A stretch of DNA of 64,000 nucleotides from Deinococcales bacterium (GTDB lineage Bacteria > Deinococcota > Deinococci > Deinococcales > JAAFIG01). Location: contig JANNVX010000114.1 of NCBI GenBank assembly GCA_031414595.1, positions 9,497 through 73,496 of the forward strand, written 5' to 3'. Under the pieces are notes generated by a model. That model was not told the DNA's origin and did not search any database. It saw only the letters and a list, made by a program, of their open reading frames with translations. Every line of letters starts with the position of its first letter. Position 1 is the first letter of the stretch. A program made the position numbers and the translations under genes. Positions 8,514 to 41,166 of the stretch are shown piece after piece.

Positions 8514-8544
8514 GGTCAGTATTTTAATACGCTATGATGAAGCC

Positions 8545-9726: not shown

Positions 9727-10316
9727 GAATTGTTTTACTGGTTGAAGGTGGTGGTGATACGCCAGCTTTGCAAAGTGAGTGCCGTAAGGGTTTTCGGCTG
9801 CTGCTCGAGAAAGCTGGTTTTCTGGGGCGAATGCCAGAAATTGTAGCGTGTGGCTCGAGAAATCAGACCTTTAAGGATTTTAAGTCGGCATTGCAGGATT
9901 CCTCAGCATTGACAATGATGTTGGTGGACAGCGAAGACCCTGTGGTTTTGCTACCGTGGGCGCATTTGAAAACTCGAGATGGCTGGTTGCAACCTAATGA
10001 AACAACCGAAAATCAGGTGCAATTCATGACGACTTGTATGGAAACTTGGTTGGTAGCTGACCCAGAGGCATTAAAAAGTTTTTTTGGTGATGGTTTTAAG
10101 GTAGGTAAATTATTGCCTATTACCAATTTGGAATCCCGTCCTCGAGATAAAGTTCAGGATGCTCTGGCAGATGCAACTAAAGATTGTGGTCGGGCTAGAA
10201 AGTATCAAAAAGGTAGGCGTTCGTTTCAGGCACTTGCCAAACTCAACCCTAGTGTGTTGATACAATTAAAGTATTTTAAGCGCTTGGTAGATGAGCTACA
10301 GGCTTTGCATTCATAG
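9723..10316 (+). CDS. DUF4276-like (TOPRIM/RloB-like) protein, partner of the ATPase
   Basis: GTGA overlap with the ATPase stop; LVEGGGD, LVDSE, METWLVAD, Y.KG motifs. Confidence 0.7.
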   Translation: MRIVLLVEGGGDTPALQSECRKGFRLLLEKAGFLGRMPEIVACGSRNQTFKDFKSALQDSSALTMMLVDSEDPVVLLPWAHLKTRDGWLQPNETTENQVQFMTTCMETWLVADPEALKSFFGDGFKVGKLLPITNLESRPRDKVQDALADATKDCGRARKYQKGRRSFQALAKLNPSVLIQLKYFKRLVDELQALHS

Positions 10317-10400: not shown

Positions 10401-13400
10401 TTATCCCATCACAACCCGAACATGGTGTGACAATCCATCTTTTAATAAATCAATACTCGAGTGCATTACGCCGTCAATCTCGATGGACTTCACCCCTTTT
10501 GATACACCATTTGGGTTTTCGACTTTGATGGTGTACACAGAATTATGGTACTTAAAAGTAATCTGATACTCTGCCCAATTCGTGGGAATACACGGGTCTA
10601 GCTCGAGCCGATTGCCACGCAACTTAAAACCCAGAATTGACTCGAGTCCAGCGCGGTAGAGCCAGCCACTCGAGCCAGTGTACCAAGTCCAACCACCACG
10701 CCCGATGTGTGGGTTTTTGGCATAAACATCGGCGGAAAGGACATACGGTTCGACTTTATATTGGTTGACTTTGGCAAGGTTACTGCTGTGAGAAATTGGG
10801 TTCAGTAAATCAAATAAAGCTGCTGATTTATTGCCCTTGCCAAGCATCGCAAACGCCACAATTGACCAAATAGCAGCGTGGGTGTACTGCCCACCATTTT
10901 CACGCACACCCGGCACATAGCCTTTAATATACCCGGGGTCAAGGGTTGTGTTTTCAAATGGCGGCGTAAACAGTAAAATCAGTTGGTCAGCACGTTTAAT
11001 CAGGTGCTGCTCGAGCGAATTCATGGCTTGGGTGGCTCGAGAGTTTTCGGCTGCCCCTGAAATAACCGCCCAAGTCTGGGCAATCGAATCTATTTGGCAT
11101 TCATCATTTTGGCTTGAACCGAGTGCTGTGCCATCATCAAAAAAGGCACGTTTGTACCATTGTCCATCCCAGCCGTGGGTCTCGAGGGCTTGCTGTAAGG
11201 TTTGGGCGTGGTTGTGCCAGATTTGCGCCCGTTCGGGTTCTTGGCGAGTTAAAGCAAGTTTTGCCCATGCAATTAAGTTGGTATACAAAAACCAGCCCAA
11301 CCAAACACTTTCGCCTTTTCCGTGCTGACCAACGCGGTTCATACCATCGTTCCAGTCGCCTGAACCAATCAGGGGCAAGCCGTGAATGCCAACCGCAAGG
11401 CTTTTATCAAGCGCTCGAGCACCATGTTCAAACAACGAGGCAGACAATGCCGAAACATTCGGGGTGAAGTAGGCATCTTCTTGGTCTGGCTCGAGCAGTA
11501 TTCCTTCTATAAAGGCAACCGGTTCATCTAACACTTCAGCATCACCTGAAATCTCGAGATAGTGGCTAATCGCATATGGCAACCAAATCAAGTCATCCGA
11601 GATTCTGGTTCGCACCCCGCGTCCAACTGGCGGATGCCACCAATGTTGGACATCGCCCTCAAGAAATTGTCGGCTGGCAGATAATAAAATCTGCTTTCTT
11701 GCCAGTTCGGGTTTGATACTTGCCATTGCCATGGTGTCTTGGAGTTGGTCACGGAAACCATATGCACCACCCGCTTGGTAAAAACCTGTACGCGCCAGAA
11801 TTCTCGAGGAGAGTGTTTGGTATGGCAACCAACGATTAAGCATGATGTCCATCGCTCGGTTTGGGGTTTGGACTTGGATGGTGGTTAGGGTTTGATGCCA
11901 ATGGTTTTTTGTTGATTCGAGAATTTGATTTATATCGGTGTTGCGGTAAAATTTGATCAGGTCTTGGGCTTGGGTTACTGATTCGGTTTGCCCGAGTAAA
12001 AAAATCACTTCAATTTTTGCACCAGCCGCTAATTCAAGGGTGGTTTGCATCGCGGCGCACGAATCAAACCCAGCCCCGATTTTGCCACTGAGTTTGGTTT
12101 TGCTTTGCAGTGAAGCAGGCGACTCGAGCTTGCCATACTGTCCAATAAATTCTAAACGGTCACAGGTAAAACGGGCATCTTTACCCGCTTGCCACTGCAC
12201 AATTAAATCGGTAAAAGCTACTTTTTTGCTGTTTTCAGAGTTCCAATGGTTACGGGCAAAAATCGCTTTGGTCAGAGGGTCTTGTTCGGTGATAATATAC
12301 GCCGATTTATTTGCGCCTAGTACCCACTCGAGGTAGGCAGTCACAGATAATTTACGGGTTTTACCAGAGCGGTTTTCAATGCTTAAACGCGAGATTTTTA
12401 CAGGGTCGTCAGCCGCCACAAATTGGCTTAGCTCGAGTTGTAAACCATGTGTGGCATGGCTAAAATGGCTATAACCTTGTCCGTGACAAATGGTGTATGG
12501 GCTGGATTCCCGAATCGGGGATGGGGTAGCCGTAAATAAAGCCAAAGTCTCTTCATCACGGATGTAAAGAATTTCTGAAATTGGGTCGGTCACGGGGTCG
12601 TTAGACCAAGGGGTGAGTTTATTTTCACGGCTGTTTTCTGCCCATGTATAACCAGCCCCCGATTCGGAGACTGTAAAACCTAGTTTTTGGTTGGCAATCA
12701 CGTTAATCCACGGGGCTGGGGTGGACTGTCCAGCCTCTAAAAAGATTTGGTACTCGAGTCCGTTGTGGGCAAAACCACCTAAGCCATTAAAAAACTCGAG
12801 GTTAGGACGGTTTAGTGTTAAAGGTGGATTATGTTTTGCAAGACTGGTTGGCGGTTTTTGTGGCAGCACTGATCGGATGGTGCGGCTGCGAATCACTTGT
12901 TCGGTCAGCGTGCCTTGTTGACTGAGCAGCATGGCTCGAGCCGTGCTTTGCAGTAAATCCTGTTCGGCACTTAAAAGTAAATCGGCACGCAGCGTAAAAA
13001 CACGCCCTTGGCTTTGGTCTTCGGTTTGCGGGCTGGTAGAACGCAACAAATGCACAATTGCTTCTTGCAGTTCCAGTTTATACGAGGTCGGCTGTTGGTT
13101 GAGGATAACCACATCCACCTTTAAGCATTTGCTGCGCCAGTATTCGTGCGCTCGCAGGATTTGACGGACAATCTCGAGGTCGGCAAGGTCGTTTATTCGC
13201 AGTAGCAGCATCGGTAAATCGCCCGAGATACCATGCCGCCATAAACCAGACTGTCCAAGGGTGTTGCGTTCTAAGACAGCACTCGAGGCTTGCATTTCGG
13301 GGCTTTGGTACAATAATTGGGTAGCAAGTCTTTGGAAAATATGGGCTTCGTCGGGACTGATTCCCAAATGATGCAATTGCACCTGAGCGCGAGTCCATGC

Positions 13401-16400
13401 CAGCGTCAAACCCCGTTCAAAAGCATCTGGGTCATTGTAACGGTCGGCTAAGTCCAGTGCAGCTTGGCGACTCGGGGCAATCATGGTTGCAAAAGTGACT
13501 CGAGCCGTTGCACCAGCCGGCAAGCCAATGGTTTGGCGGAGACTAAAAATCGGGTCTAGCACTGCACCAACTGTGCCAGACAAGGGTCTGCCAGCCGTTA
13601 TTGCCACTGGATTTTTAAGGCTCTGGTTGCGTCCGATAAAACGCGCTCGGTCGGTTTCAAATTGTAGTGCGGGTTGCGTCTCGAGAACTGTACCCTCGAG
13701 CCGAATGCTTTCAATAACTGCGGTGTGGGCTGCCCAGTAGACTGGTTCTTCGGGTGAACGCGGACGACGGGTTGCCAGTAATACCCCAAGGCTCGGTTCA
13801 AATTCGGTTTGTACAAATAGCTTGGCAAAGGCTGGATGGGCAAGGTCGGCGGCAGCCGAAGTCAAGACAATTTCGGCATACGAAGTCAGTTCAAGTTCAC
13901 GGCTAACTAAACCATGATTAGTAATCGTCACACGGCGCATTTCGGCATCGTCTTCAGGCGAAACCAAGACCTCGAGCTTAGTGGTAAAAACCCCATCTCG
14001 GCGATTAAATTCGGCACGGTCTTCAAAAAATTTAACCACCAAATCGCTTGGGTTTAAGCCAAGTGGCTGTGGCGTGACTGACCAGATTTGTTCAGGCTGT
14101 GCGGTCGGTAAAACGCGCACATAAATATAACTGCCTTGGTTATCTAGGGTGCTATCTTGTACATGACGGGTAATGGCAAGATTGTTAAAATGGCTGTAGC
14201 CAGAGCCAACCCCACTGAGCATGACGCTGTAACGCCCATTGGATAAAACATGAGTCTGCCCTACAGCTTCGCGCAGCCCATTCAAACGGCGCTCACTTGG
14301 GCTGTCGGTGGTCTCGAGTGTCCGCGCTGCCAGCACCTCCTCGGCTCGAGGTCGCGCCACCAAAGCCGCCCTTGGGGTACGTTCTTGAAGCAGCAATTCG
14401 GCAGATTGGACTCGAGTATCCGAATGAAAACGAGTCGTCATCAGGTCATTCAGTAGCACATTGGCAAAAGCCACCAAAGACATCCCCTGATGGTGCGCCA
14501 TATAATTGCGGACAACCACAAAACGAGCCGTGATTGGCAAGTTATCTGGCAAGCGTAAAGTCGTAAAGTCGAGGGCATCATAAAAACCATATTGACCACT
14601 ACCACCCATTTTCTCGAGCCGTAAAAGGTTTTGGGTGGCTGCCACAGGGTCAATCATCGCGGCTAAAGCGGTGGCATAGGGCGCAATTACCAAGTCATCG
14701 CTCAATCCCCGTTTTAAGCCCAGACCCGGCACACCAAATGCCAAATACTGATAATCAAGGCTTAAATCCCGAGCCGCAAATGCCGATTCAGAAATCCCCC
14801 ACGGGATGCGCTGAGGTGGCGCACTACGTGAATTGGCATAGGCAATCTGAGCTTGAACCACCAAATGCGAAGTTTCCTCGAGTAAACTGCCCGGTGGTGA
14901 GCGCATCACCAGCCGAGGCATCAAGTATTCAAACATCGAACCAGTCCAAGAAATGAGTGCCGTACCCCGACCCACTGGGGTTAATTCACGCCCAAGATGA
15001 AACCAATGGGCAGTCAGGACTTCGTTCTTGGCAATTGCAATAAAACTGGTTAAACGAGCCTCAGAAGCCAGTAAATCATAAAAACTTGGGTCGAGGCGCT
15101 GATTGCTGACATCAAAGCCAATTGAAAAAAGTTTTTTTTGTGGGTCAAATAAAAAACCAAAATCCATAGCCACAAATAAGCGTTCGGCTCGGGTTGCCAA
15201 TTGCTCAAACCTCGGCTCGAGTTCAGATGCTAAATCGCGTTGATGGCTGTGCAAAGTGGCACGGATGGCGTGAATCCAGTACAGCAGTTCGGGGTTAGCA
15301 TCTGTATCAGACAAGTTTTTGGTTAATCCTAGAAGTTCTTCAAAACGAATTTCCCAGCTTGTCAAATCTGTGGGCATAACATGCAAAGCCTGCTCGAGAG
15401 TTTCGAGGGCAGTTTCTAATTGCTTGGTAACTTGTGGTAATTTCAACAGCACCACTCGAGCCAAATGCAGTGCATCAGACACCCCAAGTAAGGTTGCCGT
15501 TCCAAAAAGTGCTTGATGCTTAAAGCCCAAACAGGCTGCCTTAAAAGCAATTAGATGACCTGCCAAATTGCCACTGTCTACCGTGGACACATAACGTGGC
15601 TCGAGCGGTTGGAGTGTTCGGGTATCGTACCAATTGAGTAAATGCCCATGGTGGGTTTGCAGTTGTTCAATCGCATCAAAAGCCATTTCACAACGCTCTA
15701 TAGTCTCGAGTCTGCCAATCCAAGCAAAGTCATGTGCCGAAACCGTAGCCAGTAGTGCCAAGCCGATGTTGGTCGGAGAAGTACGGTGAGCAACTAAAGG
15801 CAGCGGTATTTCTTGAAAATTATCGGGTGGCAAAAAGTGGTCTTCTACACCAACAAAACGCTCAAAGAAGCGCCAAGTACGCCGTGCCATCAAACGCAGG
15901 GTTTGTTTGTGGTCTTGGGTCAGTACCTCGAGATTCTGCCGTGGGCGATAGAGGCTTGCCCAACGTGCCACCACCGGCGAGAACCCCCACAGCAGCCCAA
16001 ACGCTAAAGCCAAGGGCAGCGAAGAGGGTTGGAACAACCACACCAGAATAATCATCAGCCCAGCGAAAATCGGTGCCGCCAGCATTTGCTGATAAAAACT
16101 GCTTAAGGCAAGATTTGCCCCTGCTTGGGCTTGGGCAGCCGTTCGCCACTCGAGCAGATGCTGCTTGGTGATAAACAATCGCCCAAGGGTACGAAAAATG
16201 GCATCCAGCATGGTAAAGGACTGGTCGGCAAGAAAAGTTATGGTCAGGGCAAATTGTGCCAAGCCCAAAGAAATCTGCTCGAGCAGTGCCAAACCATAAC
16301 TGCGCCATGAAATTTTAGCCCGAAAAGACAGTAAAGCCGTAAAAAACGGCAATAACATCGGCAACAGTAGCAGCAAAGCCACAAAACCAGTCCAGGCATA

Positions 16401-18863
16401 AGCACTTTCGAGCCATAACCAGCCCATGATTAAAGACAAAACCAATGCCACTGGCGATAAACTGCGCCGCAAGTTATCGAGCATTTTCCAGCGTCCAATT
16501 AAAGAAATCCTTGCTCGAGCAGAAAAAATCCACGGTAACAACTGCCAATCGCCACGCACCCAACGGTGTTGCCTTGCCGAACGGACACCATAATGCGAAG
16601 GGTATTCCTCGACCAGTTCAACATCGCTTAAAAGCCCGGCTCGAGCAAATAAACCCTCAAATAAATCATGACTGAGCATCGAGGCTTCTGGGATACGCTG
16701 CTGCAAAGCGGTTTCAAAAGCATCAAGGTCGTAGATACCCTTACCGGCATAACTGCCTTCGTTAAATAAATCTTGGTAGACATCGGAAACTGCACTGGCA
16801 TAGGGATCCATACCAGCTTGGCTCGAGAAGACTTGTTGAAAGACTGTGGCTTGGTGTTGGCTTGGCAGCGACAAGGTAATCCGTGGTTGTAATACTGCGT
16901 AGCCTTCAACCACACGGTTACTCGAGTCAAAACGCGGACGGTTAAGTGGATGCGCCATCGCCCCCACCAAACGCCTCACTGCCCCGCGTGGCAATTGTGT
17001 ATCGGCATCGAGGGTGATGATAAAACGCACATCTTTTGGTAACTCGAGTATCGCAGCTTTGGTCAAGACAAAACTGGTGTCAAGCGCACCACGCAGCAAA
17101 CGATTAAATTCATGTAACTTACCGCGTTTGCGCTCCCAACCCATAAAAGTTTTTTCGCTGCGGCTTTCTAAGCGTTGCCGATAAAAAAATAAGAATCGCG
17201 CACCTGCGTATCGTAAATTTAACTGCTCGACCGCCACATACGCCACTTTTAGAAGTGAAGCATCAAGTGGCATGGTGGCTGCTTGGGCATCGGTGAAATC
17301 ACCAAGAATCGCAAACAACAAGTCGCCACTCGAGTTGGCTAGATAGCGCACTTCTAAACGCTCAAATTCCTCGAGAATCGCAGTTTTTGAAGTCAGTAAA
17401 GTTGGAATCACAATCATCGTGCGTAAGGCACTTGGAATCCCCTCTTTTAGCTCGAGTTTCGCCAAGGTACGCGGTGCAAAAGTTCTGATGGCATACTGAT
17501 TGACCAAAGAAATCGCCAAATCAAGGGCTGGAATAAAAATAAGTACCAGTAAAAGTATTTGCTCGAATAAACCAATTTGCTTGGTTAGCGTTAAAAAACC
17601 AAGGGCTAGAACCAACAAACCCACCAAGCCAATTGTGCCAAGGTAGCCCCAGAGGGCGGCGGCTCGAAAACCACGCCAGAACCATTTGAAGACTCCAACT
17701 TGAAAACCAACTGCATTTTCTAAAGTTGGTCGTCCGCCCGAAATCAGGTAATAACCAACGTCGGCTGTCCGCACATCAGAGGCTTGGTTTTTTTTTGCCT
17801 CGGCTGCCAACCCCACTGCGATGCCCGCAATTTCAATTTCGGAATGCTTTGAACCTCGAGCCAATTCTTCTATCGCATGACGATACCTATCCCGAGTGGC
17901 GAAATCCGATGGTGCAAAACCAGAATCTTGAAGTAAGACCACATCCACAGCACTGACCGATTCAAAAAAAACTGCCCAATCCACCAATGAAATCAGGCGC
18001 ATACTGGTGATGATATTTCGCACCGTGACATTTGCCGAGGCTTGCAACACATATTCTTCGGCAACCGCTTGTTCCGAAGTTGTGCCTTGGGCAGCTAAAC
18101 GCAACTCGAGAAGCTGCATAATCTGAAAAGCCACTTCTTCGCGTTCACGCATCCTTTGGGTTAATTGGACCACAAATGCCCGCGCTAAACTCTGGCGCTG
18201 CAAACGCTTTTTCATGGCTTCCAACGGCACTTTTTGCCGACCATTTAAGCCCAGTAAATCGTCGGCAAAATTATCGGCGGCTTCTCTGGCTTGACGGGCT
18301 TCTAAAACACGTTTCGAGATTCGTCGCAGGTTCTCGATTAAAACAATCCGCAAGGTAATCGGTAAAGCCCAGAGTTCTCCTATCTCGAGGGTCTGTTTTT
18401 TTTGGAACGCCAGTACAAAGCGGCTTAGCGTCTCAGCTTCAAAATGACTGTCGGTATGCGCTACAAAAGCCCATGCCAAACCAAAAACCCGAGGAAAAAA
18501 TTGTAAATGACCACTGGCAAGCTTAGGTAAACGCCGATAAAAACCCGCCGGTAAATCCTGGGTAATCTGGCGCAGTTGCTCATCTATCAGGTAATAATTG
18601 TCCACCAACCACTCGGCAGCAGGCGTGATGGAGCGCCCCGCTTTGATGGCTGCCACCATTGCCTTGTAAGAAGTCAGCAGCACGGCTGCATTATCAGCCA
18701 CCCGCCTAGAAATGCCACGTCCAAAAGACGGATTCTTTGCTAAGATTTGTTCGTCCGCCAAAGAAGCAGCCACTTGCTCGAGTCGCTCGAGATTAAAAAT
18801 TGCCCCACGAATCGGTTCATCTAAACCATCGGGCGAAGCGGCATCAAAAGGTAGAGCAATCAT
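10401..18863 (-). CDS. ndvB: Cyclic beta-1,2-glucan synthase / GH94 phosphorylase (NdvB/Cgs/ChvB-like), 2820 aa
   Basis: EWLVDNYY, GWERKRGK, TLDADT, GKGIYD, LSHDLFEG, RWVRGDWQ, DLLASEARL, PWGISES, GFRDQLQD, GDWNDG, ENGGQYTH, WTWYTGS. Confidence 0.92.
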   Translation of the reverse strand: MIALPFDAASPDGLDEPIRGAIFNLERLEQVAASLADEQILAKNPSFGRGISRRVADNAAVLLTSYKAMVAAIKAGRSITPAAEWLVDNYYLIDEQLRQITQDLPAGFYRRLPKLASGHLQFFPRVFGLAWAFVAHTDSHFEAETLSRFVLAFQKKQTLEIGELWALPITLRIVLIENLRRISKRVLEARQAREAADNFADDLLGLNGRQKVPLEAMKKRLQRQSLARAFVVQLTQRMREREEVAFQIMQLLELRLAAQGTTSEQAVAEEYVLQASANVTVRNIITSMRLISLVDWAVFFESVSAVDVVLLQDSGFAPSDFATRDRYRHAIEELARGSKHSEIEIAGIAVGLAAEAKKNQASDVRTADVGYYLISGGRPTLENAVGFQVGVFKWFWRGFRAAALWGYLGTIGLVGLLVLALGFLTLTKQIGLFEQILLLVLIFIPALDLAISLVNQYAIRTFAPRTLAKLELKEGIPSALRTMIVIPTLLTSKTAILEEFERLEVRYLANSSGDLLFAILGDFTDAQAATMPLDASLLKVAYVAVEQLNLRYAGARFLFFYRQRLESRSEKTFMGWERKRGKLHEFNRLLRGALDTSFVLTKAAILELPKDVRFIITLDADTQLPRGAVRRLVGAMAHPLNRPRFDSSNRVVEGYAVLQPRITLSLPSQHQATVFQQVFSSQAGMDPYASAVSDVYQDLFNEGSYAGKGIYDLDAFETALQQRIPEASMLSHDLFEGLFARAGLLSDVELVEEYPSHYGVRSARQHRWVRGDWQLLPWIFSARARISLIGRWKMLDNLRRSLSPVALVLSLIMGWLWLESAYAWTGFVALLLLLPMLLPFFTALLSFRAKISWRSYGLALLEQISLGLAQFALTITFLADQSFTMLDAIFRTLGRLFITKQHLLEWRTAAQAQAGANLALSSFYQQMLAAPIFAGLMIILVWLFQPSSLPLALAFGLLWGFSPVVARWASLYRPRQNLEVLTQDHKQTLRLMARRTWRFFERFVGVEDHFLPPDNFQEIPLPLVAHRTSPTNIGLALLATVSAHDFAWIGRLETIERCEMAFDAIEQLQTHHGHLLNWYDTRTLQPLEPRYVSTVDSGNLAGHLIAFKAACLGFKHQALFGTATLLGVSDALHLARVVLLKLPQVTKQLETALETLEQALHVMPTDLTSWEIRFEELLGLTKNLSDTDANPELLYWIHAIRATLHSHQRDLASELEPRFEQLATRAERLFVAMDFGFLFDPQKKLFSIGFDVSNQRLDPSFYDLLASEARLTSFIAIAKNEVLTAHWFHLGRELTPVGRGTALISWTGSMFEYLMPRLVMRSPPGSLLEETSHLVVQAQIAYANSRSAPPQRIPWGISESAFAARDLSLDYQYLAFGVPGLGLKRGLSDDLVIAPYATALAAMIDPVAATQNLLRLEKMGGSGQYGFYDALDFTTLRLPDNLPITARFVVVRNYMAHHQGMSLVAFANVLLNDLMTTRFHSDTRVQSAELLLQERTPRAALVARPRAEEVLAARTLETTDSPSERRLNGLREAVGQTHVLSNGRYSVMLSGVGSGYSHFNNLAITRHVQDSTLDNQGSYIYVRVLPTAQPEQIWSVTPQPLGLNPSDLVVKFFEDRAEFNRRDGVFTTKLEVLVSPEDDAEMRRVTITNHGLVSRELELTSYAEIVLTSAAADLAHPAFAKLFVQTEFEPSLGVLLATRRPRSPEEPVYWAAHTAVIESIRLEGTVLETQPALQFETDRARFIGRNQSLKNPVAITAGRPLSGTVGAVLDPIFSLRQTIGLPAGATARVTFATMIAPSRQAALDLADRYNDPDAFERGLTLAWTRAQVQLHHLGISPDEAHIFQRLATQLLYQSPEMQASSAVLERNTLGQSGLWRHGISGDLPMLLLRINDLADLEIVRQILRAHEYWRSKCLKVDVVILNQQPTSYKLELQEAIVHLLRSTSPQTEDQSQGRVFTLRADLLLSAEQDLLQSTARAMLLSQQGTLTEQVIRSRTIRSVLPQKPPTSLAKHNPPLTLNRPNLEFFNGLGGFAHNGLEYQIFLEAGQSTPAPWINVIANQKLGFTVSESGAGYTWAENSRENKLTPWSNDPVTDPISEILYIRDEETLALFTATPSPIRESSPYTICHGQGYSHFSHATHGLQLELSQFVAADDPVKISRLSIENRSGKTRKLSVTAYLEWVLGANKSAYIITEQDPLTKAIFARNHWNSENSKKVAFTDLIVQWQAGKDARFTCDRLEFIGQYGKLESPASLQSKTKLSGKIGAGFDSCAAMQTTLELAAGAKIEVIFLLGQTESVTQAQDLIKFYRNTDINQILESTKNHWHQTLTTIQVQTPNRAMDIMLNRWLPYQTLSSRILARTGFYQAGGAYGFRDQLQDTMAMASIKPELARKQILLSASRQFLEGDVQHWWHPPVGRGVRTRISDDLIWLPYAISHYLEISGDAEVLDEPVAFIEGILLEPDQEDAYFTPNVSALSASLFEHGARALDKSLAVGIHGLPLIGSGDWNDGMNRVGQHGKGESVWLGWFLYTNLIAWAKLALTRQEPERAQIWHNHAQTLQQALETHGWDGQWYKRAFFDDGTALGSSQNDECQIDSIAQTWAVISGAAENSRATQAMNSLEQHLIKRADQLILLFTPPFENTTLDPGYIKGYVPGVRENGGQYTHAAIWSIVAFAMLGKGNKSAALFDLLNPISHSSNLAKVNQYKVEPYVLSADVYAKNPHIGRGGWTWYTGSSGWLYRAGLESILGFKLRGNRLELDPCIPTNWAEYQITFKYHNSVYTIKVENPNGVSKGVKSIEIDGVMHSSIDLLKDGLSHHVRVVMG

Positions 18864-23777: not shown

Positions 23778-24287
23778 ATGACAACATTTGCCCCAACCAT
23801 GCTTGCCACACCAACTGATTTAAGTGCAAAAGAAGTACAAATAATCAGTCAAAGCCTGAATGCCTTAATTGCCGATGCTTTGGCTTTATATATCAAAACC
23901 AAAAATTACCATTGGCATTTGTACGGTGCAAGTTTTAAGGAACTCCACGAACTTTTTGACACCCATGCCGAGCAACTTCTCGAGTCAGTAGACCCTCTTG
24001 CCGAACGGGTGCGTAAACTTGGTGCGACCACACTGCATTCAATTTCGCAAATTGCCAAGTTACAACAAATTAAAGACGACGAAGACGATTTGGTTAAACC
24101 ACTGGAAATGGTCAAGCGCTTACTGAGCGACAATCAATATATGGCACGTTGTCAACGCACTGCCATCAGTGTTTGCGAAGAAAACAACGATACCGTCAGC
24201 AGTGATATTTTACAAAGTTACCTCGACCAAACCGAACGTCGGGTTTGGTTTTTGTTTGAAATTGCCCAAGGCAAAGCCCATCAATAA
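23778..24287 (+). CDS. dps: Dps family ferritin-like DNA protection protein (copy 1)
   Basis: LYIKTKNYHWH..G..F.ELHELFD, D.LAERVR.LG, ERRVWFL. Confidence 0.92.
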   Translation: MTTFAPTMLATPTDLSAKEVQIISQSLNALIADALALYIKTKNYHWHLYGASFKELHELFDTHAEQLLESVDPLAERVRKLGATTLHSISQIAKLQQIKDDEDDLVKPLEMVKRLLSDNQYMARCQRTAISVCEENNDTVSSDILQSYLDQTERRVWFLFEIAQGKAHQ

Positions 24288-24409
24288 AAAATAAATTGGC
24301 GATTTGGAAAATAATCATGTGCGCGGGAGAAATCCGAACAATGATGAATCAGTTCTTGCCACTCGAGATGATGCCGTGCATCTCGGGTGAGACTTTTATC
24401 AGGAGCAAC

Positions 24410-25066
24410 ATGAAAACCGATCAGCAACTTCGAGAAGATATTATTGCCGAACTGGAATATGACCCAAGCATTGAGACCAAAAAAATCTCGGTGGCAACCT
24501 TGAATGGCATTGTTACTTTATCTGGCAGTGTGCCAAATTTTTATGAAAAATGGAGCATCGAACGAGCCGTAAAGCGAGTGGCTGGCGTGAGCGGGATTGC
24601 CGAGGAATTAACCGTTCAAACTTTTCCCAATACTGAACAAACAGATAGCGAAATTGCCCAAGCCGCTCGATTGGCAATCCAATGGAGTGTGGCTATTGCC
24701 GAAGAACAGATTCAAATTATGGTTGAACAAGGGATCATTACACTCGAGGGTGCAGTGGATTGGCAGTACCAAAAGCAAAATGTCTACGATGCGGTTATTC
24801 ATTTACGCGGGGTTCAAGGTATTCATAATCGGATAACCTTAAAACCATACCTGACAAGTACCGACGTGCGTGAAAAAATCGAAGCTGCCTTTAAGCGCAG
24901 TGCCAACTTTAACGCAAAACAAGTTCATGTAACCGTGGACAACGGCAATGTCACGCTCGAAGGCAACTTGCCCACATGGACTGAACGTGACACCGCTAGC
25001 CGAGTGGCTTGGAACGCGGCGGGGGTGATGACGGTCAACAATCAAATTATGGTGGGTGGCATCTAA
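24410..25066 (+). CDS. Triple BON-domain (OsmY-like) protein
   Basis: Three BON repeats (GIVTLSG, GIITLEG, GNVTLEG...AWNAAGV..VNN); RBS AGGAG before ATG 24410. Confidence 0.9.
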   Translation: MKTDQQLREDIIAELEYDPSIETKKISVATLNGIVTLSGSVPNFYEKWSIERAVKRVAGVSGIAEELTVQTFPNTEQTDSEIAQAARLAIQWSVAIAEEQIQIMVEQGIITLEGAVDWQYQKQNVYDAVIHLRGVQGIHNRITLKPYLTSTDVREKIEAAFKRSANFNAKQVHVTVDNGNVTLEGNLPTWTERDTASRVAWNAAGVMTVNNQIMVGGI

Positions 25067-25110
25067 GAATGCGTTCAAAAAATGCGGCTGGCAAACAAAG
25101 GACCAAAATC

Positions 25111-25437
25111 ATGAAAGAAATTATGCCAAGTAAAGCCTCGGATATGTCAGATCGGATTCATGCCAATATGTACATAGAAAGTTGTATCAAAACCGCCAAA
25201 ACATTTGTTGGAACGGTTGCAGGTATAAAAAACGATCTTTTTATTAAATTGCGTAAACGCGACACACCAGATGGTAAACGCCGTTTTATTCCACTCGAGT
25301 GGGTTCTGTCAGTCGAAGGGGATACGGTGCTGCTGAGTAAAAAAGCTGAAACCGTCAGGCGCAGATGGTTGACCAAAGCAGCCGTTAAAAAGCATCTGCA
25401 CAAAATACATAAATCCCAAAGTCAGTCAAAGCCTTAA
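25111..25437 (+). CDS. DUF2171-like protein
   Basis: VGTV...IKLRKRDTPDGKRRFIPLEWV.SVEGDTV.LSK; start uncertain. Confidence 0.65.
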   Translation: MKEIMPSKASDMSDRIHANMYIESCIKTAKTFVGTVAGIKNDLFIKLRKRDTPDGKRRFIPLEWVLSVEGDTVLLSKKAETVRRRWLTKAAVKKHLHKIHKSQSQSKP

Positions 25438-25465
25438 AAAATCCGCCATCCAAAAAGGAGGAAAC

Positions 25466-25690
25466 ATGTACGACATCCCTAACCATCTCAGCGATGATTT
25501 ACCAACTTTAAGTCCGTTGGTCAGTTTAAGCCCCGAAGTCTTTCTCAAGAGCCAGCCAATGCTGCTTTATGCCGATATTCTCGAGCAACCAGACCACTTA
25601 CTGATTCGCATAAACGTACCAGGTGCAAGACCAGGGAACATTATTGTCACCTTGGAGAACAATGTTTTATCGGTAGCAGCCAAACTCGAG
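25466..25690 (+). pseudogene. 3'-truncated Hsp20/alpha-crystallin gene
   Basis: Paralogous to 38564..39046 up to ...NNVLSVAAKLE; homology stops at CTCGAG 25685-25690 and the ORF then reads antisense into the USP fragment. Confidence 0.8.
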
Positions 25691-25885
25691 CCACGGCTGG
25701 AGAATCTGTTGCGCTTCGTTTTTATTTGTTTCTTCAGGAATTATCAGAAAACGACCATGTTGCACATTGGTTAGAATCACAGTTGCTTCGAGTTGATGTG
25801 CCAGCAAAAAACCCGATTCGATGGCTTTATTTACGGCGGTTTGTTCATTGTGGGCAACGGGTATAAGAATTCGTTTGATGGTCAT
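25685..25885 (-). pseudogene. 3'-truncated universal stress protein gene
   Basis: MTIKRILIPV...AHQLEATVIL..V...EAQQILQPWLE with RBS AAGGAG; USP similarity ends at the same CTCGAG. Confidence 0.75.
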
Positions 25886-25911
25886 GATTCACGCTCCTTT
25901 TGTTAAAAGCT

Positions 25912-25943
25912 ACGTTAGAACCAGTGCATTACGGCGATATTAC
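25912..25943 (-). promoter_or_regulatory. SARP-type operator site 1
   Basis: GTAATAT-cgcc-GTAATGC-N8-TAACGT, upstream of the truncated USP. Confidence 0.65.
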
Positions 25944-26800
25944 TGCCAGCGCTCGAGAACCTGATTATGTTGACCCACACAAGCTCCATCGCTCGAGAAT
26001 GGACAATTGGCTGTAACTTGCACTGGTTGACGATTACAGATTTTCTCCCCGTTTTTGATCCGCTCAGCAAGCACTAAAGTTTCTGGCATTGGTGAATCCT
26101 CGAGTTCTGCGCGTAAAAAATGAATGAACCGACGGTAATGTTCGATGGCAGCGTACTTATCTTCCACCACTGATAGACAAGTCATCAGTTTTTGATGGTA
26201 GTTCTCGCCAATATACGGGTCTATTCGTAACGCCCTGACTAAAGCACCAACTGCACCTGCACACGCTCCTGTTCCGCAATGCAGCAAAGAAATCTCGAGA
26301 TTAGCTCGGACATATACACCGCGCAGTTCTTCGCGTAATTCATTTGCCCAAGCTACTGTCATACTGGGTAAGAAATCTCCTTTGTACAAACCAATAACAT
26401 TCTGAAAAGCCCTGAGTTTTAATTCTTCAGTTGCGGCATGATGGGCTGATTCAAGGGTTCTATACATCTGGTTTAAGTCGGTGGATGCCAGCACATAGGC
26501 ATTTAAGCGGTAACGATTGTGCTGCTCGAGTAACACATCGTTATTTTCGAGTGCCTGACGAATACGGTGTACCGTGACCCGAAACCGATTATTGCTTTCT
26601 TTAGTCGGTTCGGTTTGCCAGAGTTGCTCAAAAATTTCTTCTTTTTGCTTACCTTCAGGGTGGGCAAGTAAATAAAAAAAGAGTTCCTCGGCAGTTTTAC
26701 TCTTAAATTGAGCCTCTGCTCCATTCACCAGCACTTGATGCGTGCCTAGCGTTCTAATCTCGAGACTGATAAAGACCTCCAAGTGTAACCGAGCTTTCAA
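25940..26800 (-). CDS. SARP/AfsR-like transcriptional regulator (wHTH + BTAD) with Cys-rich C-terminus, paralog 1
   Basis: EIRTLG..QV, ELFFYLLAHP, EQLW, FRVTVHRIRQAL (wHTH); LYKGDFL, WANELRE, ALRIDPY.E..HQKLM, E..DSP.PET (BTAD). Start uncertain: GGAGG sits 5 nt before ATC 26770. Confidence 0.85.
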   Translation of the reverse strand: MKARLHLEVFISLEIRTLGTHQVLVNGAEAQFKSKTAEELFFYLLAHPEGKQKEEIFEQLWQTEPTKESNNRFRVTVHRIRQALENNDVLLEQHNRYRLNAYVLASTDLNQMYRTLESAHHAATEELKLRAFQNVIGLYKGDFLPSMTVAWANELREELRGVYVRANLEISLLHCGTGACAGAVGALVRALRIDPYIGENYHQKLMTCLSVVEDKYAAIEHYRRFIHFLRAELEDSPMPETLVLAERIKNGEKICNRQPVQVTANCPFSSDGACVGQHNQVLERWQ

Positions 26801-26896: not shown

Positions 26897-26928
26897 GTAA
26901 CGCTATGGTAATGCCAACCTTGCAGACT
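26897..26928 (+). promoter_or_regulatory. SARP-type operator site 3
   Basis: GTAACGC-tatg-GTAATGC-N8-CAGACT, then RBS AAGGAGG and USP ATG 26947. Confidence 0.7.
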
Positions 26929-26946
26929 CTTTCAAGGAGGCATTCC

Positions 26947-27375
26947 ATGTTTCAACATATCCTCGTTCCAATAGACTCGAGCCAATCCAGCAAAGCCGCC
27001 GCACAACTCGCTGCACGGTTGGCTCGAGCATGGGGAAGTCAGGTTACTTTTGTGCATATTTACGAAGGTGACGCGACCCAAGAAGCTCGGGCTTTACTCG
27101 AGGGTTTTATACAATACACCCGTCTTGTCCCACACCTGATTCTCGAGCCGATGCAGCATAACTTATCAGAAACACTGGTTGGACTTGCCACTCGAGAAGC
27201 CACCGAACTAATCCTGATTGGTGTTCATGCCTATGCCAGACTCGAGCAAGAAGTGCTGGATGGGGTGGCAGGAAGCATTTCGGAACAAGCCAAAATACCC
27301 GTCTTAATCGTGCCAATAGAAAGTAAAAAAGTTGGGTTTGAAGCGCGTTGGGCAAGTGCGGTAATGCAGCCGTAA
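26947..27375 (+). CDS. Universal stress protein (single domain)
   Basis: MFQHILVPIDSS..S..A, LILIGVH, PVLIVP. Confidence 0.85.
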   Translation: MFQHILVPIDSSQSSKAAAQLAARLARAWGSQVTFVHIYEGDATQEARALLEGFIQYTRLVPHLILEPMQHNLSETLVGLATREATELILIGVHAYARLEQEVLDGVAGSISEQAKIPVLIVPIESKKVGFEARWASAVMQP

Positions 27376-27412: not shown

Positions 27413-27586
27413 ATGCGAACCATTCCAGTAATCGGTAGTTTAACCCTATTTCTAGCCAGTTTATTTGTTGCCATAAATTTACAAAAACCATTGGCAGGAC
27501 TGATTATTTTAATTGTTAGCTTGCTGACTTTGTGGCTCGAAGTTAGCCACCGAGATTCACAAGAAGGAGAACATCATGTTCGCTAA
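27413..27586 (+). CDS. Small two-helix membrane protein, 57 aa
   Basis: Below ORF-track cutoff; RBS GAGGTG; MRTIPVIGSLTLFLASLFVAINLQKPLAGLIILIVSLLTLWLEVSHRDSQEGEHHVR; overlaps the next start. Confidence 0.6.
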   Translation: MRTIPVIGSLTLFLASLFVAINLQKPLAGLIILIVSLLTLWLEVSHRDSQEGEHHVR

Positions 27587-28526
27587 AGTCTGCATTCCTG
27601 TTACCAACGAATCCCTGTCCATTCATGCGGCTCGAGCCGCGCTGGATTTTGCCCATAAACTCAAGGCTACAGCTGTGTTTGTATCGGTCTTTACAATGCC
27701 GATTATTTACCGCTCTCAGACCGAAGAAGAAGTTCGGCTTGAATTACAAAAAAATACTGAAGCCTTTCTCGAGACTTGGATAGAATTTGCCGAGCATCGC
27801 CAAGTTCCAGTCAGTACAATCGCCATTGAAGCTCGAGCCTCGGGAATCGCCCAAACCATTGCCGAAATTGCTCTTGAGGAACACTGCGATTTAATCGCTA
27901 TGGGAACACACGCCTACGAAGGGATGAACCGACTTTTGCTTGGTAGTATCGCCGAAGCTGTGACACGTTATTCGCACTTACCAGTGATGCTATTCCATAT
28001 CGGTCTTGTACCAACCGCCAAACCATTTGATTGCAACCGAATTCTGGTGGCTGTGGATGGTAGTCAAGCTACAGCCGAAGCACTTGATATTACCAGAGCT
28101 TTGGCTAAACAATTGCCTGCCAGTGTTGAAATCTTGCACGTAGTACCTGACGTTCCACCGACTTACGATACCATCATGCCAATGATTGATTACTCAAACC
28201 TAGCTACTGATTACTTAAACGAAGGTAAGCATATTTTGTACAACGCTGAAGCTAAACTAACCGACATTAGCAACAAGGAATTGGTTCTCGAGCCAGCCGG
28301 TGGTCGGCGAATTGCCACTGTGATTCTCGAGATTGCTAAAAATCATCACGCTGATTTGATTGTGCTGGGAACACACGGGTACGGTGGTTTAGACCGAATT
28401 TTACTCGGCAGCGTGGCGCAAGCCGTGGCGCACCATGCTCATGTGCCTGTGCTGCTGACTCGAGCAGCACAGCGCGAAGATGTGGCTGCCTCTGCTGCTA
28501 CTGCCCTCCCAAGTTTAGCTGTTTAA
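27576..28526 (+). CDS. Tandem-domain universal stress protein
   Basis: Two USP domains (DLIAMGTH...LLGSIAE; RILVAVDGS...DLIVLGTHG...LGSVAQ). Confidence 0.92.
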   Translation: MFAKVCIPVTNESLSIHAARAALDFAHKLKATAVFVSVFTMPIIYRSQTEEEVRLELQKNTEAFLETWIEFAEHRQVPVSTIAIEARASGIAQTIAEIALEEHCDLIAMGTHAYEGMNRLLLGSIAEAVTRYSHLPVMLFHIGLVPTAKPFDCNRILVAVDGSQATAEALDITRALAKQLPASVEILHVVPDVPPTYDTIMPMIDYSNLATDYLNEGKHILYNAEAKLTDISNKELVLEPAGGRRIATVILEIAKNHHADLIVLGTHGYGGLDRILLGSVAQAVAHHAHVPVLLTRAAQREDVAASAATALPSLAV

Positions 28527-30480: not shown

Positions 30481-32335
30481 ATGAAAACTAAGTCGCTCGA
30501 GCCACCGCTTAAAAAAATGATTGCCCAAGTCCTTAACCTACGCAACCAAGCTATTGCCCTCGAGCAAACGTACCACGTTGAACTTAAAAAAATTCGCCCC
30601 CCATATTTGCAAAGCGCTCGAAATTTAATTCATTACTTGGCGGTGCGCCAACAAGACATTCGTGAGATACAACTTGAGTTGCAACGCCTTGGTCTGAGTT
30701 CGCTTGGGCGCATGGAAGCCAATGTTTTAGCAACGCTCAATGCCGTGTTGTTCGCTTTGCAACGCATGGCTGGCTCGAGCGAACAGCTTGAGGTAACGCT
30801 TGACCCACAGCTTGAGGTAACGCTTGACCCACAGCTTGGGCGCTTACTTCGTAATCACACCACCCGAATTCTTGGTAAAAGTCCACGACATCGGGCAGTG
30901 AGAATCATGGTCACAATGCCCGAACAAGCTGCCACCGATGCTGGTTTAATTGCCAAATTTCTCGAGTGTGGTATGGATATTATGCGAATAAACTGCGCTC
31001 ATGACGATGCCATAACTTGGGCAAAGATGCTCGAAAATCAGCGCCAAGCAACCATTCAACTTGGACGCAGTTGTCGTGTTGTCTTTGATTTGGCTGGACC
31101 AAAACTTCGCACTGGATTATTTGAAGCGAGCGCAGAAGTCCTCAAAATAAAACCAGCGCGATCAATTTGGACGAGTGGTGACCAAAGCTCGAGTCTTTTT
31201 TACAACCACAAAGTTAAGTGCGCCAACCCAAACAGTCTGTATTCCAGTAACCGAGTTACAATTGCAAAGCTGCCAACTAGGTGATCAATTTTTGTTGACC
31301 GATGCTCGAGGTCGCTCGAGAATTTTTGAGATTATTGAGCTTTTAGCCACTGGTTGTATTTGCCAAATCGAACGAACTGCCTACTTGACTTCGGGAATGC
31401 CAATTTGTGTTTACCACAATAAAAAACAATTGCTTGAGGGTCGAATTGGCAAGTTGCCCTCAAAACCACAAGCCCTCGAGTTGCGAGTTGGAGATACGTT
31501 AATCGTGACCCACGATAGTATTCTTGGCAATCAAGCCCGAATTGAGAACGGGATGCCAATACCAGTCCAGATTGGTTGTACTTTGCCACAAGTCTTTGGT
31601 GATGTCAAACCAAACGAGCGAATTCTATTTGACGACGGCATCATCGCTGGCATCATCAAAAAAGTCAGTCCAGAACAACTCGAGGTAGAAATCACCAATG
31701 TGGCTGGAGGTCTAGCAAAACTTCGTTCCGAAAAAGGCATTAACTTACCTGATACCGATTTTTCGATAGCTGCTTTGACTGAAAAAGACCTCGAAGACCT
31801 CAAGTTTATTGTTAAAAACAGCGATATGGTTTCGTTATCCTTTGTCCGAAACCGAAAAGACATCGAAATGTTGATTGCTCAACTCGAGCAATTAGGCGGG
31901 AAGCACCTTGGCATTGTCTTAAAGATTGAGAATCGTCTTGCTTTTGAGAATTTACCCGATTTACTACTGACAGCCTTGTCTCACCCACCGGTTGCAATCA
32001 TGATTGCTCGAGGCGACTTAGCTGTGGAAATAGGGTTTGAGCGCCTTGCTGAAGTCCAAGAAGAAATTCTTTGGCTCTGCGAAGCGGCGCATATTCCCGT
32101 GATTTGGGCAACCCAAGTGCTGGATTCGTTAGCAAAAAATGGTTCACCAACTCGAGCCGAAGTGACCGACGCTGCCATGTCAGGACGCGCTGAATGCGTC
32201 ATGCTTAACAAAGGCTCATACATTCCCGAAGCCTTGTTGTTTCTTGATAATGTTCTGCGACGCATGAAGCAACATCAGAACAAAAAAACTTCGATGCTCA
32301 GACGCTTAAAAGTAACAACGCCAAAGCTCGAGTAG
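30481..32335 (+). pseudogene. pyk: Long-type pyruvate kinase, split by a frameshift near 31156-31160
   Basis: ORF1: GLSSLGR.E, RIMVTMP, RINCAHD, DLAGPKLRTG. ORF2: FDDG, KGINLP, KIE, ARGDL.VE, WATQVL, TRAEVTDA, CVMLNKG. The frames join as KIKPA(R)DQFGRVV if 2 nt are restored in GCGCG. Confidence 0.85.
30784..30838 (+). repeat. In-frame 24-bp tandem duplication inside pyk (QLEVTLDP x2)
   Basis: CAGCTTGAGGTAACGCTTGACCCA repeated exactly twice, plus a partial third copy. Confidence 0.9.
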
Positions 32336-38563: not shown

Positions 38564-39046
38564 ATGGTTCATTATGATATTCCCAAGCAGCTTCTTCCTG
38601 AAAAACAACTTACCCATGAAATTTGTCCACCCCAAAAGCTAGGCATCAGTCCAGAGGTGATTCTCAACGGCTTACCGAGGTTGTTACATACCGATGTTCT
38701 CGAGCAGCCAGACCATTTGTTAATCCGTATGAACTTGCCAGGTGTAAAACCAGAAAATGTGGCGGTCACACTAATGAACAATGTCTTATCGGTAGTGGCG
38801 CGGCTCGAGACTGAATCGCTAGAAGCACAGTATTTGTGGCGTGAACGCCCAAGTGGTGAAGTTTTTCGTTCGATTGCTTTAATTGGCGACCTCGAGATGT
38901 GTGGTGGTCGGGCTTTTCTCGAGCATGGCGTGTTGACTGTGCGGGTTAATAAAGTCAATAGCCATGTGCTTGCAGTACAACTTGGGGCGCTCGAGCATGA
39001 TTACTTAGAGCTTGTGCAAACAGACTTTTGTCAAGCTTGGTACTGA
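38564..39046 (+). CDS. Hsp20/alpha-crystallin family small heat shock protein
   Basis: DVLE..D.LLIR..LPGVKPE...V.L..NVL.V, RERP.G.V.RSI.L, A.LEHGVLTV. Confidence 0.85.
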   Translation: MVHYDIPKQLLPEKQLTHEICPPQKLGISPEVILNGLPRLLHTDVLEQPDHLLIRMNLPGVKPENVAVTLMNNVLSVVARLETESLEAQYLWRERPSGEVFRSIALIGDLEMCGGRAFLEHGVLTVRVNKVNSHVLAVQLGALEHDYLELVQTDFCQAWY

Positions 39047-39058
39047 ACAAGGAGTTTT

Positions 39059-39568
39059 ATGACGATTCCAGCCACAAAAATGTTGGCGACTCCAACAGAC
39101 CTAAGCCCAGACCAAGTGACAGCCATTAGCCAAACCATTAATATTTTAATTGCTGATACTTTGGCGCTCTATATTAAAACCAAGAATTTTCATTGGCATT
39201 TGTATGGCGCAGACTTCAAGGAACTGCACGAGCTTTTTGACTCGCACGCCGACCAATTACTGGCTTATGTAGATGTGCTTGCCGAGCGTGTCCGCAAACT
39301 TGGTGAACCAACCCTACATTCAATTTCGCAAATTGCCAAGTTACAACAAATTAAAGATGACAATGAACCCTCGGTCAAGCCACTTGAGATGGTTAAGCGG
39401 TTATTGAGCGATAACCAACAGATGGTTCGTCAGCAACGAACAGCCATTGCACTTTGCGAAGCCAACCACGATTCGCCTACCAGCAATGTTTTACAAACGT
39501 TCCTTGATGAAACCGAGCGTCGTGTTTGGTTTTTATTTGAGATTACCCAAGGAGAAAAATCCAAATAG
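39059..39568 (+). CDS. dps: Dps family protein (copy 2)
   Basis: Same motifs as 23778..24287, with long identical stretches (LHSISQIAKLQQIKDD). Confidence 0.92.
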   Translation: MTIPATKMLATPTDLSPDQVTAISQTINILIADTLALYIKTKNFHWHLYGADFKELHELFDSHADQLLAYVDVLAERVRKLGEPTLHSISQIAKLQQIKDDNEPSVKPLEMVKRLLSDNQQMVRQQRTAIALCEANHDSPTSNVLQTFLDETERRVWFLFEITQGEKSK

Positions 39569-39776
39569 TTTTTTCTAGGTCAAAAGGAGTATTTATGGAC
39601 AGCACTAAAAAAAACTTGAGGCGGCAACTCGAGCCGCTTGGAATACCCAGGGTGTGACTTCGGTCAGAAACGACATTTTGATTGCTTGAAACTCGGAAGT
39701 GAAAACTGAACCAGTCGTTTCTCGCCACTCGAGATGATGCCGTGCATATTAAGTGAGACGCTAAACAGGAGTAATC

Positions 39777-40439
39777 ATGAAAACCGATAAAAAATTACAA
39801 GAAGATGTTCTTGCCGAACTGGATTTTGAACCAAGTGTCAATGCGGCTCACGTTGGAGTAACCGCCAATAATGGCGTGGTTACACTGACAGGGACAGTGG
39901 ATTCATTTGCTGGCAAAATGGCTATCTCGAGGGTGATTGAACGGGTCAATGGCGTTTTTGGCATCGCCGATGAAATGAAGGTTAATCTGCCCTCGAGCCA
40001 TCAGCGCAACGATACCGACATTGCCCGAGCCGCCGTTGAAGCCCTAGAGTGGAGTTGGCTTATACCGCGTGAGAGCATCAAAGTGAAGGTGCAAAGTGGT
40101 TGGGTGACACTTGAAGGCGAAGTTCATTGGGAGTTTCAGCGCGGTCAGGCACATCAAACGATGAATAGTTTGGTTGGGGTACGCGGGGTCAGCAATAACC
40201 TTAAAATCAAAGCCAGCCAAATTAACATTCAACCGTACAGCATCGAAACCAGCATCAAAAATGCCTTCGAGCGCAACGCCGAACTAAACAGCAAAGCCAT
40301 TTCCATCGAGGTTATGGCTGGACGTGTCACCTTGCGTGGCAATTTACCATCGTTAAAAGAACGTGATTCAGCAGTGTTGGCAGCTTGGAGCGCTCCAGGT
40401 GTGATTGGTGTGGAAAACCGCATTGTGATTGGTACTTAG
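39777..40439 (+). CDS. Triple BON-domain (OsmY-like) protein
   Basis: MKTD..LQ.DV.AEL.FEPSV, GVVTLTG, GWVTLEG, AAWSAPGV..VEN. Confidence 0.9.
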   Translation: MKTDKKLQEDVLAELDFEPSVNAAHVGVTANNGVVTLTGTVDSFAGKMAISRVIERVNGVFGIADEMKVNLPSSHQRNDTDIARAAVEALEWSWLIPRESIKVKVQSGWVTLEGEVHWEFQRGQAHQTMNSLVGVRGVSNNLKIKASQINIQPYSIETSIKNAFERNAELNSKAISIEVMAGRVTLRGNLPSLKERDSAVLAAWSAPGVIGVENRIVIGT

Positions 40440-40506
40440 AACCCATATGGCAATTGGTACTTAGAAAACTTGGCTCGAGACTGCTCGAGATGATTAAAGG
40501 AGAACG

Positions 40507-41166
40507 ATGAATAAGCGAACCGATATTCAAGTCCATAAAGACGTACTTGATGAACTGGGCTTTGACCCAAGTATTGACATATCACAAATTTCAGTGGCTG
40601 TTTCGGATGGCATTGTCACACTTTCGGGCAGTGTGACAAATTTCTATGAAAAATGGAATGCCGAACGTGCTGTCAAGCGCGTAGTAGGAGTCGAGGGTTT
40701 TGCCGAAGAACTAAGCGTTCAGCCTTTTCCAAAAACTGAGCAATCCGACACCGACATTGCTGCTGCGGCTCGTCATGCAATTAAGTGGGGGGTGTCAGTC
40801 CCCGACGAAGACATTCAAATCAAGGTTGAAAACGGCATTATTACGCTTGAAGGGCAAGTGGACTGGCACTACCAAATGAAGAATGTCTATAGCGCTGTGT
40901 TGTACTTACGTGGTGTTAAAGGCGTGAATAACTTAATCAGCCTTAAACCAACTTTAAGCAGTGCTGATGTCCGTGAAAAAATTGAAGCTGCCTTTAAGCG
41001 CAGTGCCTACCTTGATTCCGAACATATTTATGTGACTGCCCAAGGTGGCAATATTACTTTGCGCGGTCATTTGCCCACTTGGACGGAACGCGAATCTGCC
41101 AGCCGTGTGGCGTGGAATGCAGGTGGCGTAATTGCTGTCAACAACGAAATTACAGTCGGTTACTAA
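40507..41166 (+). CDS. Triple BON-domain (OsmY-like) protein
   Basis: Closest in-window paralog of 24410..25066 (NFYEKW..ERAVKRV, DVREKIEAAFKRSA, LPTWTER). Confidence 0.9.
   Translation: MNKRTDIQVHKDVLDELGFDPSIDISQISVAVSDGIVTLSGSVTNFYEKWNAERAVKRVVGVEGFAEELSVQPFPKTEQSDTDIAAAARHAIKWGVSVPDEDIQIKVENGIITLEGQVDWHYQMKNVYSAVLYLRGVKGVNNLISLKPTLSSADVREKIEAAFKRSAYLDSEHIYVTAQGGNITLRGHLPTWTERESASRVAWNAGGVIAVNNEITVGY

Follow-up and report, generated by a model that had tools for sequence, protein, structure and literature searches.

Replication slippage and annealing give rise to deletions between short direct repeats (microhomology), on which Bzymek and Lovett reportedly worked in 2001. Such deletions leave one copy of the repeat at the junction.

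A palindrome can play the part of such a dispersed short repeat. HIP1, the octamer GCGATCGC of cyanobacteria, is hyper-abundant, and the deletion at the smt locus of Synechococcus PCC 6301 is said to be bordered by it. Elhai (2015; PMC4390886) describes illegitimate recombination between cloned sequences at HIP1, of low efficiency and seen in both Synechococcus and E. coli, along with some indication of site-specific recombination at this element. For the illegitimate recombination the account cites Robinson et al. (1997), who reportedly saw excision at similar frequencies in the two hosts. Since excision took place in E. coli too, host-specific machinery is not implied, as far as that account goes.

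The locus described here joins the 5′ parts of two genes at CTCGAG, the commonest hexamer of the window (the whole 64-kb stretch of DNA that was analysed). One short-homology (illegitimate) recombination probably brought two 5′ parts together head-on, that of an hsp20 gene and that of a tandem universal stress protein (USP) gene, with the palindrome in a passive role. An earlier note had called the junction a rearrangement scar, and the orthologue alignments bear this out: the breakpoint interval that they define includes CTCGAG.

Two gene stubs and the interval that joins them

The plus-strand ORF (25466-25774, 102 aa) follows AAGGAGG, a ribosome-binding-like sequence at 25455-25461, and reads ...NNVLSVAAKLE and then PRLENLLRFVF.... 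A search of a large protein collection with this ORF returned three proteins from nine candidates, one of them the ORF itself, present on two contigs. The hsp20 orthologues, P0004 and P0005, are HSP20-family proteins of 158 aa each with precomputed PF00011 matches; the stub is 84% identical to the former over 81 aa and 73% identical to the latter over 82 aa. About 82 codons are missing. The Pfam HSP20 profile (PF00011) aligns with the stub over no more than positions 1-39 of its 102 (E 0.0072), and the score of 16.9 bits lies below the curated cut-off of 20.8. Judged from these matches, what remains is part of a PF00011 family member and not a complete one.

An intact paralogue in the second stress cluster (38564-39046) matches PF00011 over positions 2-90 with 45.4 bits. 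As the earlier note had claimed, the stub follows this paralogue up to Leu-Glu (41 of 79 residues identical, 52%, ending in ...VVARLE), and the paralogue carries CTCGAG at the same codons as the stub's junction site (38804-38809). Indeed, both CTCGAG sites of the stub are shared in position with the paralogue, which has five in total. In the plus-strand tail the window departs from the hsp20 orthologues, which have SLEATSYLWHERPSGEVF there, and the bases of the tail encode USP when read on the minus strand.

The minus-strand ORF (25667-25885, 72 aa) is likewise preceded by a ribosome-binding-like sequence, AAGGAGC (25893-25899, minus strand), and reads ...EAQQILQPWLE and then FGCYR before its stop. 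A search among longer proteins returned two from 22 candidates: P0001 (316 aa) and P0002 (323 aa), both two-domain USPs carrying PF00582. By tblastn, residues 1-69 of these proteins fall on 25885-25679, at 80% and 74% identity, respectively. A search with full-length P0001 added further orthologues of 316-333 aa, and the stub was aligned with 12 orthologues in this size range. The 72-aa stub itself matches no Pfam family at E ≤ 0.01, PF00582 included. At the position of the minus-strand tail, orthologues read EQLGV or QRFGV.

Both genes are thus truncated, as had been proposed, and each ORF does run into the antisense of the other past the junction; the two overlap in antisense over 25667-25774. 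The parent of the USP stub was a tandem two-domain gene, with about 250 codons gone rather than about 80. Coordinates of these and neighbouring features are collected in the table.

Table. Features at and around the junction, in window positions
Feature	Position	Strand	Remarks
Dps-like gene	23778-24287	+	Pfam; left of the stubs
BON gene	24296-25066	+	Pfam; left of the stubs
DUF2171 protein gene	25009-25437	+	Pfam; left neighbour
5′ remnant of hsp20 (small heat-shock protein) gene	25466-25693	+	roughly the first 76 of some 158 codons
Non-hsp20 tail of the plus-strand ORF	25694-25774	+	RLENLLRFVF...HIG and stop; antisense of the USP remnant
Non-USP tail of the minus-strand ORF	25667-25678	-	CYR and stop; antisense of hsp20 codons LSVA
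5′ remnant of tandem (two-domain) USP gene	25679-25885	-	codons 1-69 of about 316-323
Crossover interval, GCCAAACTCGAGCCA	25679-25693		15 nt; hsp20 A-K-L-E-P on plus, USP W-L-E-F-G on minus
CTCGAG	25685-25690		Leu-Glu on both strands; centre of the crossover interval
CTGGAG, one-off variant of the palindrome	25697-25702		L-E in the hsp20 frame, L-Q (CTCCAG) in the USP frame
BTAD/winged-helix transcriptional regulator gene	25940-26800	-	Pfam; right neighbour
USP gene	26905-27375		right of the stubs
Tandem USP gene	27576-28526		right of the stubs
Intact hsp20 paralogue	38564-39046	+	160 aa; second stress cluster

The position given earlier for the hexamer, and the reading of both ORFs across it, proved correct when the sequence was re-read. 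All bases of the crossover interval are compatible with both parent genes at the level of protein fit. To its left, GCA (25676-25678) encodes the hsp20 Ala; in the USP frame it gives Cys at a position that E, Q, K, R, or A fills in the orthologues. To its right, CGG (25694-25696) gives Pro in the USP frame, a residue shared by 8 of the 12 orthologues, whereas the hsp20 frame has Arg against Ser in both hsp20 orthologues. These two codons discriminate between the parents and thereby confine the crossover to 15 nt.

Homology to each parent extends further than this. The tblastn match to the hsp20 orthologues continues to 25702-25705 (KLEPSLE against KLEPRLE in the window), and that to the USP orthologues reaches 25679 (PWLELG or PWLLFG against PWLEFG), so that 24 nt (25679-25702) belong to both homologies. 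Such family-compatible residues past the hexamer place the join within some 8-15 nt of homology, wider than CTCGAG alone. The earlier placement of the break at CTCGAG therefore stands in part: the interval is centred on the hexamer, but the homology runs past it in both directions.

What the parents carried can be approached through the alignments. Leu-Glu occupies the junction position in both hsp20 orthologues and in the paralogue. Among the 12 USP orthologues, the Trp is invariant, the next Gly is present in 11, and Pro precedes the Trp in eight; Leu-Glu at the junction is common only to the closest, P0001 (PWLE). At the neighbouring CTCCAG, where the window has L-Q, 11 of the 12 have L-E. 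Both parents most likely had Leu-Glu at the junction, as far as these residues tell. If both encoded it by CTCGAG, with Trp as TGG and Pro as CCN, at least CTCGAGCC (8 nt) would have been shared; the identical stretch can have been at most the 15 nt of the crossover interval. We infer the parental CTCGAG and the shared length of 8-15 nt from protein alignments that include only two hsp20 orthologues.

The genetic code imposes a further constraint. CTCGAG is the sole hexamer that gives Leu-Glu on both strands in register, so a head-on fusion that keeps Leu-Glu in both genes must show CTCGAG.

Two other explanations for the position of the junction were considered and rejected. A foreign insertion or island boundary finds no counterpart in composition, as G+C is flat at 0.44-0.47 on either side of the junction (46.8% for the whole window). 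A hairpin or quasi-palindrome driver is not indicated by predicted DNA folding of 25667-25714: the fold is worth -4 kcal/mol, a value equalled or bettered by 165 of 200 shuffles (z = 0.87). Between the stubs, neither a terminator-like site nor an intergenic remnant was found.

An assembly or cloning chimera formed at the shared word would account for a join within a stretch that is, in fact, a repeated word. But an overlap of at most 15 nt falls under the usual word sizes of assemblers, composition and CTCGAG density are continuous over the join, and the identical fused ORF of 102 aa occurs on two contigs in the protein collection, which are perhaps not independent. Such an artefact is very improbable.

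The stubs sit in what is, by Pfam assignment, a stress-gene island, with Dps, BON, DUF2171, and USP genes around them; beyond the right-hand USPs lie NapC/NirT-type and c552 cytochromes. The window contains two paralogous stress clusters (23778-25437 and 38564-41166) of unlike gene order: Dps-BON-DUF2171-hsp20 stub in one, and hsp20-Dps-BON-BON in the other. The two Dps copies are identical at 123 of 169 residues.

Several features elsewhere in the window may be recorded here. A 2820-aa ORF on the minus strand (10401-18863), with GH94 supersandwich and catalytic domains and a glucoamylase-like domain, looks like a cyclic β-1,2-glucan synthase or phosphorylase. An AAA_21/AAA_15 ATPase gene followed by one for a DUF4276 protein (8479-10316, plus strand) presumably resembles a putative ATPase-plus-nuclease defence module. 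No tRNA genes and no Rfam matches were found in the window, and an atlas query with an unannotated neighbour returned nothing beyond weak, uninformative matches.

CTCGAG abundance and the coincidence it predicts

The window holds 300 copies of CTCGAG, one per 213 nt, versus 7.2 expected from 100 dinucleotide-preserving shuffles; the shuffle maximum was 12, and none of the 100 reached 300. This 42-fold over-representation extends to coding and non-coding sequence (4.6 sites per kb in ORFs, 5.7 outside), and in this sense the hexamer is HIP-like: a short palindrome present many-fold in excess in both. Among the 264 sites in ORFs, 151 lie in the Leu-Glu frame and 45 and 68 in the other two; 36 sites lie outside ORFs. 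The ORFs contain 259 Leu-Glu pairs versus 131 expected, and CTCGAG encodes 151 of the 259. CTC and GAG are minority codons, yet CTCGAG dominates Leu-Glu. The hexamer thus shapes the proteins of the window.

Relatives of the two stubs differ in this respect. The hsp20 orthologues P0004 and P0005 contain 5-6 Leu-Glu pairs versus about 1.7 expected, and the USP orthologues 2-5 versus 2-3 expected. These counts hint that relatives share the CTCGAG habit, unevenly across genes.

No strong extended consensus surrounds the CTCGAG sites of the window. Among one-off variants, those that change one of the four inner positions differ in number by type: transversions are rare (0-6 copies, including CTGGAG with four and CTCCAG with six), and transitions number about 15-18.

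Other palindromes are skewed in the opposite direction. Absent from the window are 26 of the 64 palindromic hexamers (10-22 copies expected for each), and a further 17 are present at no more than three copies; 112 hexamers are absent in total, the 26 palindromes among them. GGCC does not occur (about 190-300 expected), and GATC occurs 31 times (about 190-250 expected). The palindrome statistics of the window are a stranger feature than the junction itself. A literature search found no paper describing a bacterium in which CTCGAG is hyper-abundant throughout the genome. In treating Nocardia, Blow et al. (2016; PMC4752239) report clusters of CTCGAG with an orphan methyltransferase at the replication origin, a pattern unlike that of the window.

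With 300 copies instead of 7, coincidence between CTCGAG and any junction has a high baseline. A whole CTCGAG lies in 4.7% of random 15-nt intervals of the window. Among maximal direct repeats in the window that are 300-3000 nt apart, the share containing CTCGAG rises with repeat length: 7.7% for at least 6 nt (3870/50019); 16% for at least 8 nt (734/4504); 22% for at least 9 nt (312/1417); and 29% for at least 12 nt (16/55). One junction at CTCGAG is therefore only weak evidence of any special property.

The flanks of the hexamer are more informative. All 600 CTCGAG contexts (300 sites, both strands) were read in the Leu-Glu frame and compared with the continuations seen in the orthologues. 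After KLE, at least three of six residues of the hsp20 continuation are matched in nine of the 600 contexts, the junction included; after PWLE, at least two of six residues of the USP continuation are matched in 74. If the two are independent, their joint chance is about 0.002, a post hoc statistic. By this post hoc test, the recombined pair of sites appears to have shared more than the hexamer. Similarity past the hexamer argues for a homology-guided event over flank-blind cutting and ligation.

End joining independent of homology, with CTCGAG coincidental and the flank matches due to chance, would find its hexamer in the 4.7% of random intervals noted above, but would leave to luck the orthologue-like residues on either side of the hexamer in both frames. 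This explanation appears highly improbable.

The remaining possibility for the hexamer is an active one, in which an enzyme specific for CTCGAG (a nuclease, nickase, or recombinase, either XhoI-type or belonging to a palindrome-linked system) cleaved at two sites before the ends were rejoined. CTCGAG is intact at the junction, the parents probably had Leu-Glu there, and an excess in coding and non-coding sequence alike suggests some system acting on the hexamer. Moreover, Elhai (2015; PMC4390886), in the account referred to above, mentions evidence tying HIP1 to site-specific recombination. Cutting followed by ligation would nonetheless not predict a fit to both parents outside the hexamer, and a baseline of 5-29% already covers the coincidence. 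Cut-and-rejoin would call for a cognate enzyme and a junction independent of flanking homology; Pfam scans of 63 window proteins revealed no methyltransferase, nuclease, or recombinase. Given restriction-site avoidance, a host is unlikely to leave open to cleavage a site that recurs in its own DNA every 213 nt. Finally, there is one case only. Enzymatic cutting at this junction is quite unlikely.

The wider proposal, that CTCGAG is an active recombination hotspot in this lineage, HIP-like outside cyanobacterial HIP1 and served by a dedicated nicking, cutting, or strand-exchange activity, looks very unlikely. If true, CTCGAG-driven gene loss would have left a natural footprint in the fusion of hsp20 and USP. 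The earlier note had likewise cast the palindrome as a point of recombination or of cutting and rejoining. That part of its reading is not supported as worded, given coincidence expected at 4.7% to about 29% and the similar flanks.

A second candidate lesion in the window was examined and rejected. A pyruvate-kinase-barrel gene (30481-32335, plus strand) is broken up between ORFs 30481-31284 and 31175-32335, which overlap; its frame changes at about 31150-31175, upstream of the CTCGAG at 31188-31193. This gene is either a frameshift pseudogene or bears a sequence error. It also contains a perfect tandem duplication of 24 nt (30783-30830, plus strand), which repeats the peptide QLEVTLDP; the 24-nt unit includes CTTGAG, a one-off variant of the palindrome.

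A probable short-homology event and its possible topologies

The preferred reading, recombination through short homology, would proceed as follows. The hsp20 sense strand and the USP antisense strand were presumably identical, or nearly so, over 8-15 nt; the exchange would have fallen inside that stretch, with similarity of the parents continuing beyond it, up to 25702. Because hsp20 sense and USP antisense are direct repeats on the plus strand, a deletion is simplest: it would have removed at least about 1 kb, taking everything between two convergent genes together with the 3′ end of each. Slipped mispairing in the course of replication is a likely route; so is repair of a break by single-strand annealing or microhomology end joining. 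Both stubs would then be pseudogene remnants that keep their start and ribosome-binding site and run in frame into each other's antisense. CTCGAG would be passive, a source of dispersed microhomology and not a dedicated site for cutting or recombination. It may form the core of the homology because it is both the commonest repeated word and the sole hexamer that specifies Leu-Glu on both strands.

The same short homology could have acted in another topology, either as an inversion between inverted copies or, had the genes never been neighbours, as a very large deletion; a reciprocal junction or a large loss would then be expected elsewhere in the genome. A palindromic core can be used in either orientation. 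Among the contigs found, moreover, none has an hsp20 orthologue as well as a USP orthologue: those of hsp20 come from contigs of 3,307 and 72,534 nt, and those of the USP from contigs of 2,409, 31,884, 1,348, 83,801, 5,283, and 366,608 nt and others. No sizes coincide, an indirect comparison in which short contigs are uninformative.

Set against this, a deletion requires one product only, and the 64-kb window contains neither the 3′ pieces of hsp20 or USP nor a reciprocal junction. In tblastn searches with P0001, P0002, P0004, and P0005, only the stubs appeared, together with paralogues at 34% and 61-62% identity. These other topologies, taken as rivals to a deletion between neighbours, are unlikely. 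On the contig comparison, though, a large deletion or an inversion may be viewed as no less open than a small deletion.

Wider searches yielded no close relative of the locus. A scan of genome contigs with the P0001/P0002 alignment produced 159 matches to the pattern, of which the one confirmed was an unrelated alphaproteobacterial locus at 25% identity; the genome of the window was not among the matches and appears to be absent from the contigs scanned. In a plasmid collection, blastn gave one 135-nt match to the BTAD gene, in Deinococcus, and nothing else; tblastn gave only matches below 60% identity.

Taken alone, the junction is an ordinary pseudogenisation event, another instance of a known event type, and one junction does not suffice to tell whether the palindrome was passive or active. 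Its value lies elsewhere. It offers a clean natural example of a hyper-abundant palindrome feeding genome decay: since CTCGAG specifies Leu-Glu on both strands, and 151 of 264 ORF sites are in that frame, genes on opposite strands share microhomology in register. It also comes with a concrete baseline for surveys of junctions, about 5% for random intervals and 8-29% for short direct repeats, and an active role of the palindrome becomes arguable only from an excess over these values.

Comparison with known systems

Rearrangements by restriction-modification systems of the PaeR7I/XhoI type involve the same recognition word, and cutting and rejoining would leave the site intact, as it is here. 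No such enzyme was seen in the window, however, and the site is hyper-abundant instead of avoided. This comparison also leaves the flank homology unexplained.

As in microhomology deletions, both flanking genes are truncated, a single copy of the repeat remains at the junction, and no sequence-specific enzyme is required; at the protein level, that one copy fits both parents. Unlike a generic microhomology deletion, the repeat is a word over-represented genome-wide from which either strand gives the same dipeptide, so head-on fusions keep both frames in register.

The deletions and excisions at HIP1 are the closest precedent; they share a hyper-abundant short palindrome at the join that serves as a dispersed short repeat. 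They differ in the word (an octamer, as against the hexamer CTCGAG, and CGATCG is absent from the window). They differ also in that the event here is reconstructed from its remnants, and in that the homology appears longer than the palindrome. By analogy, the junction fits the passive picture of HIP1, that of illegitimate recombination between copies of an abundant word.
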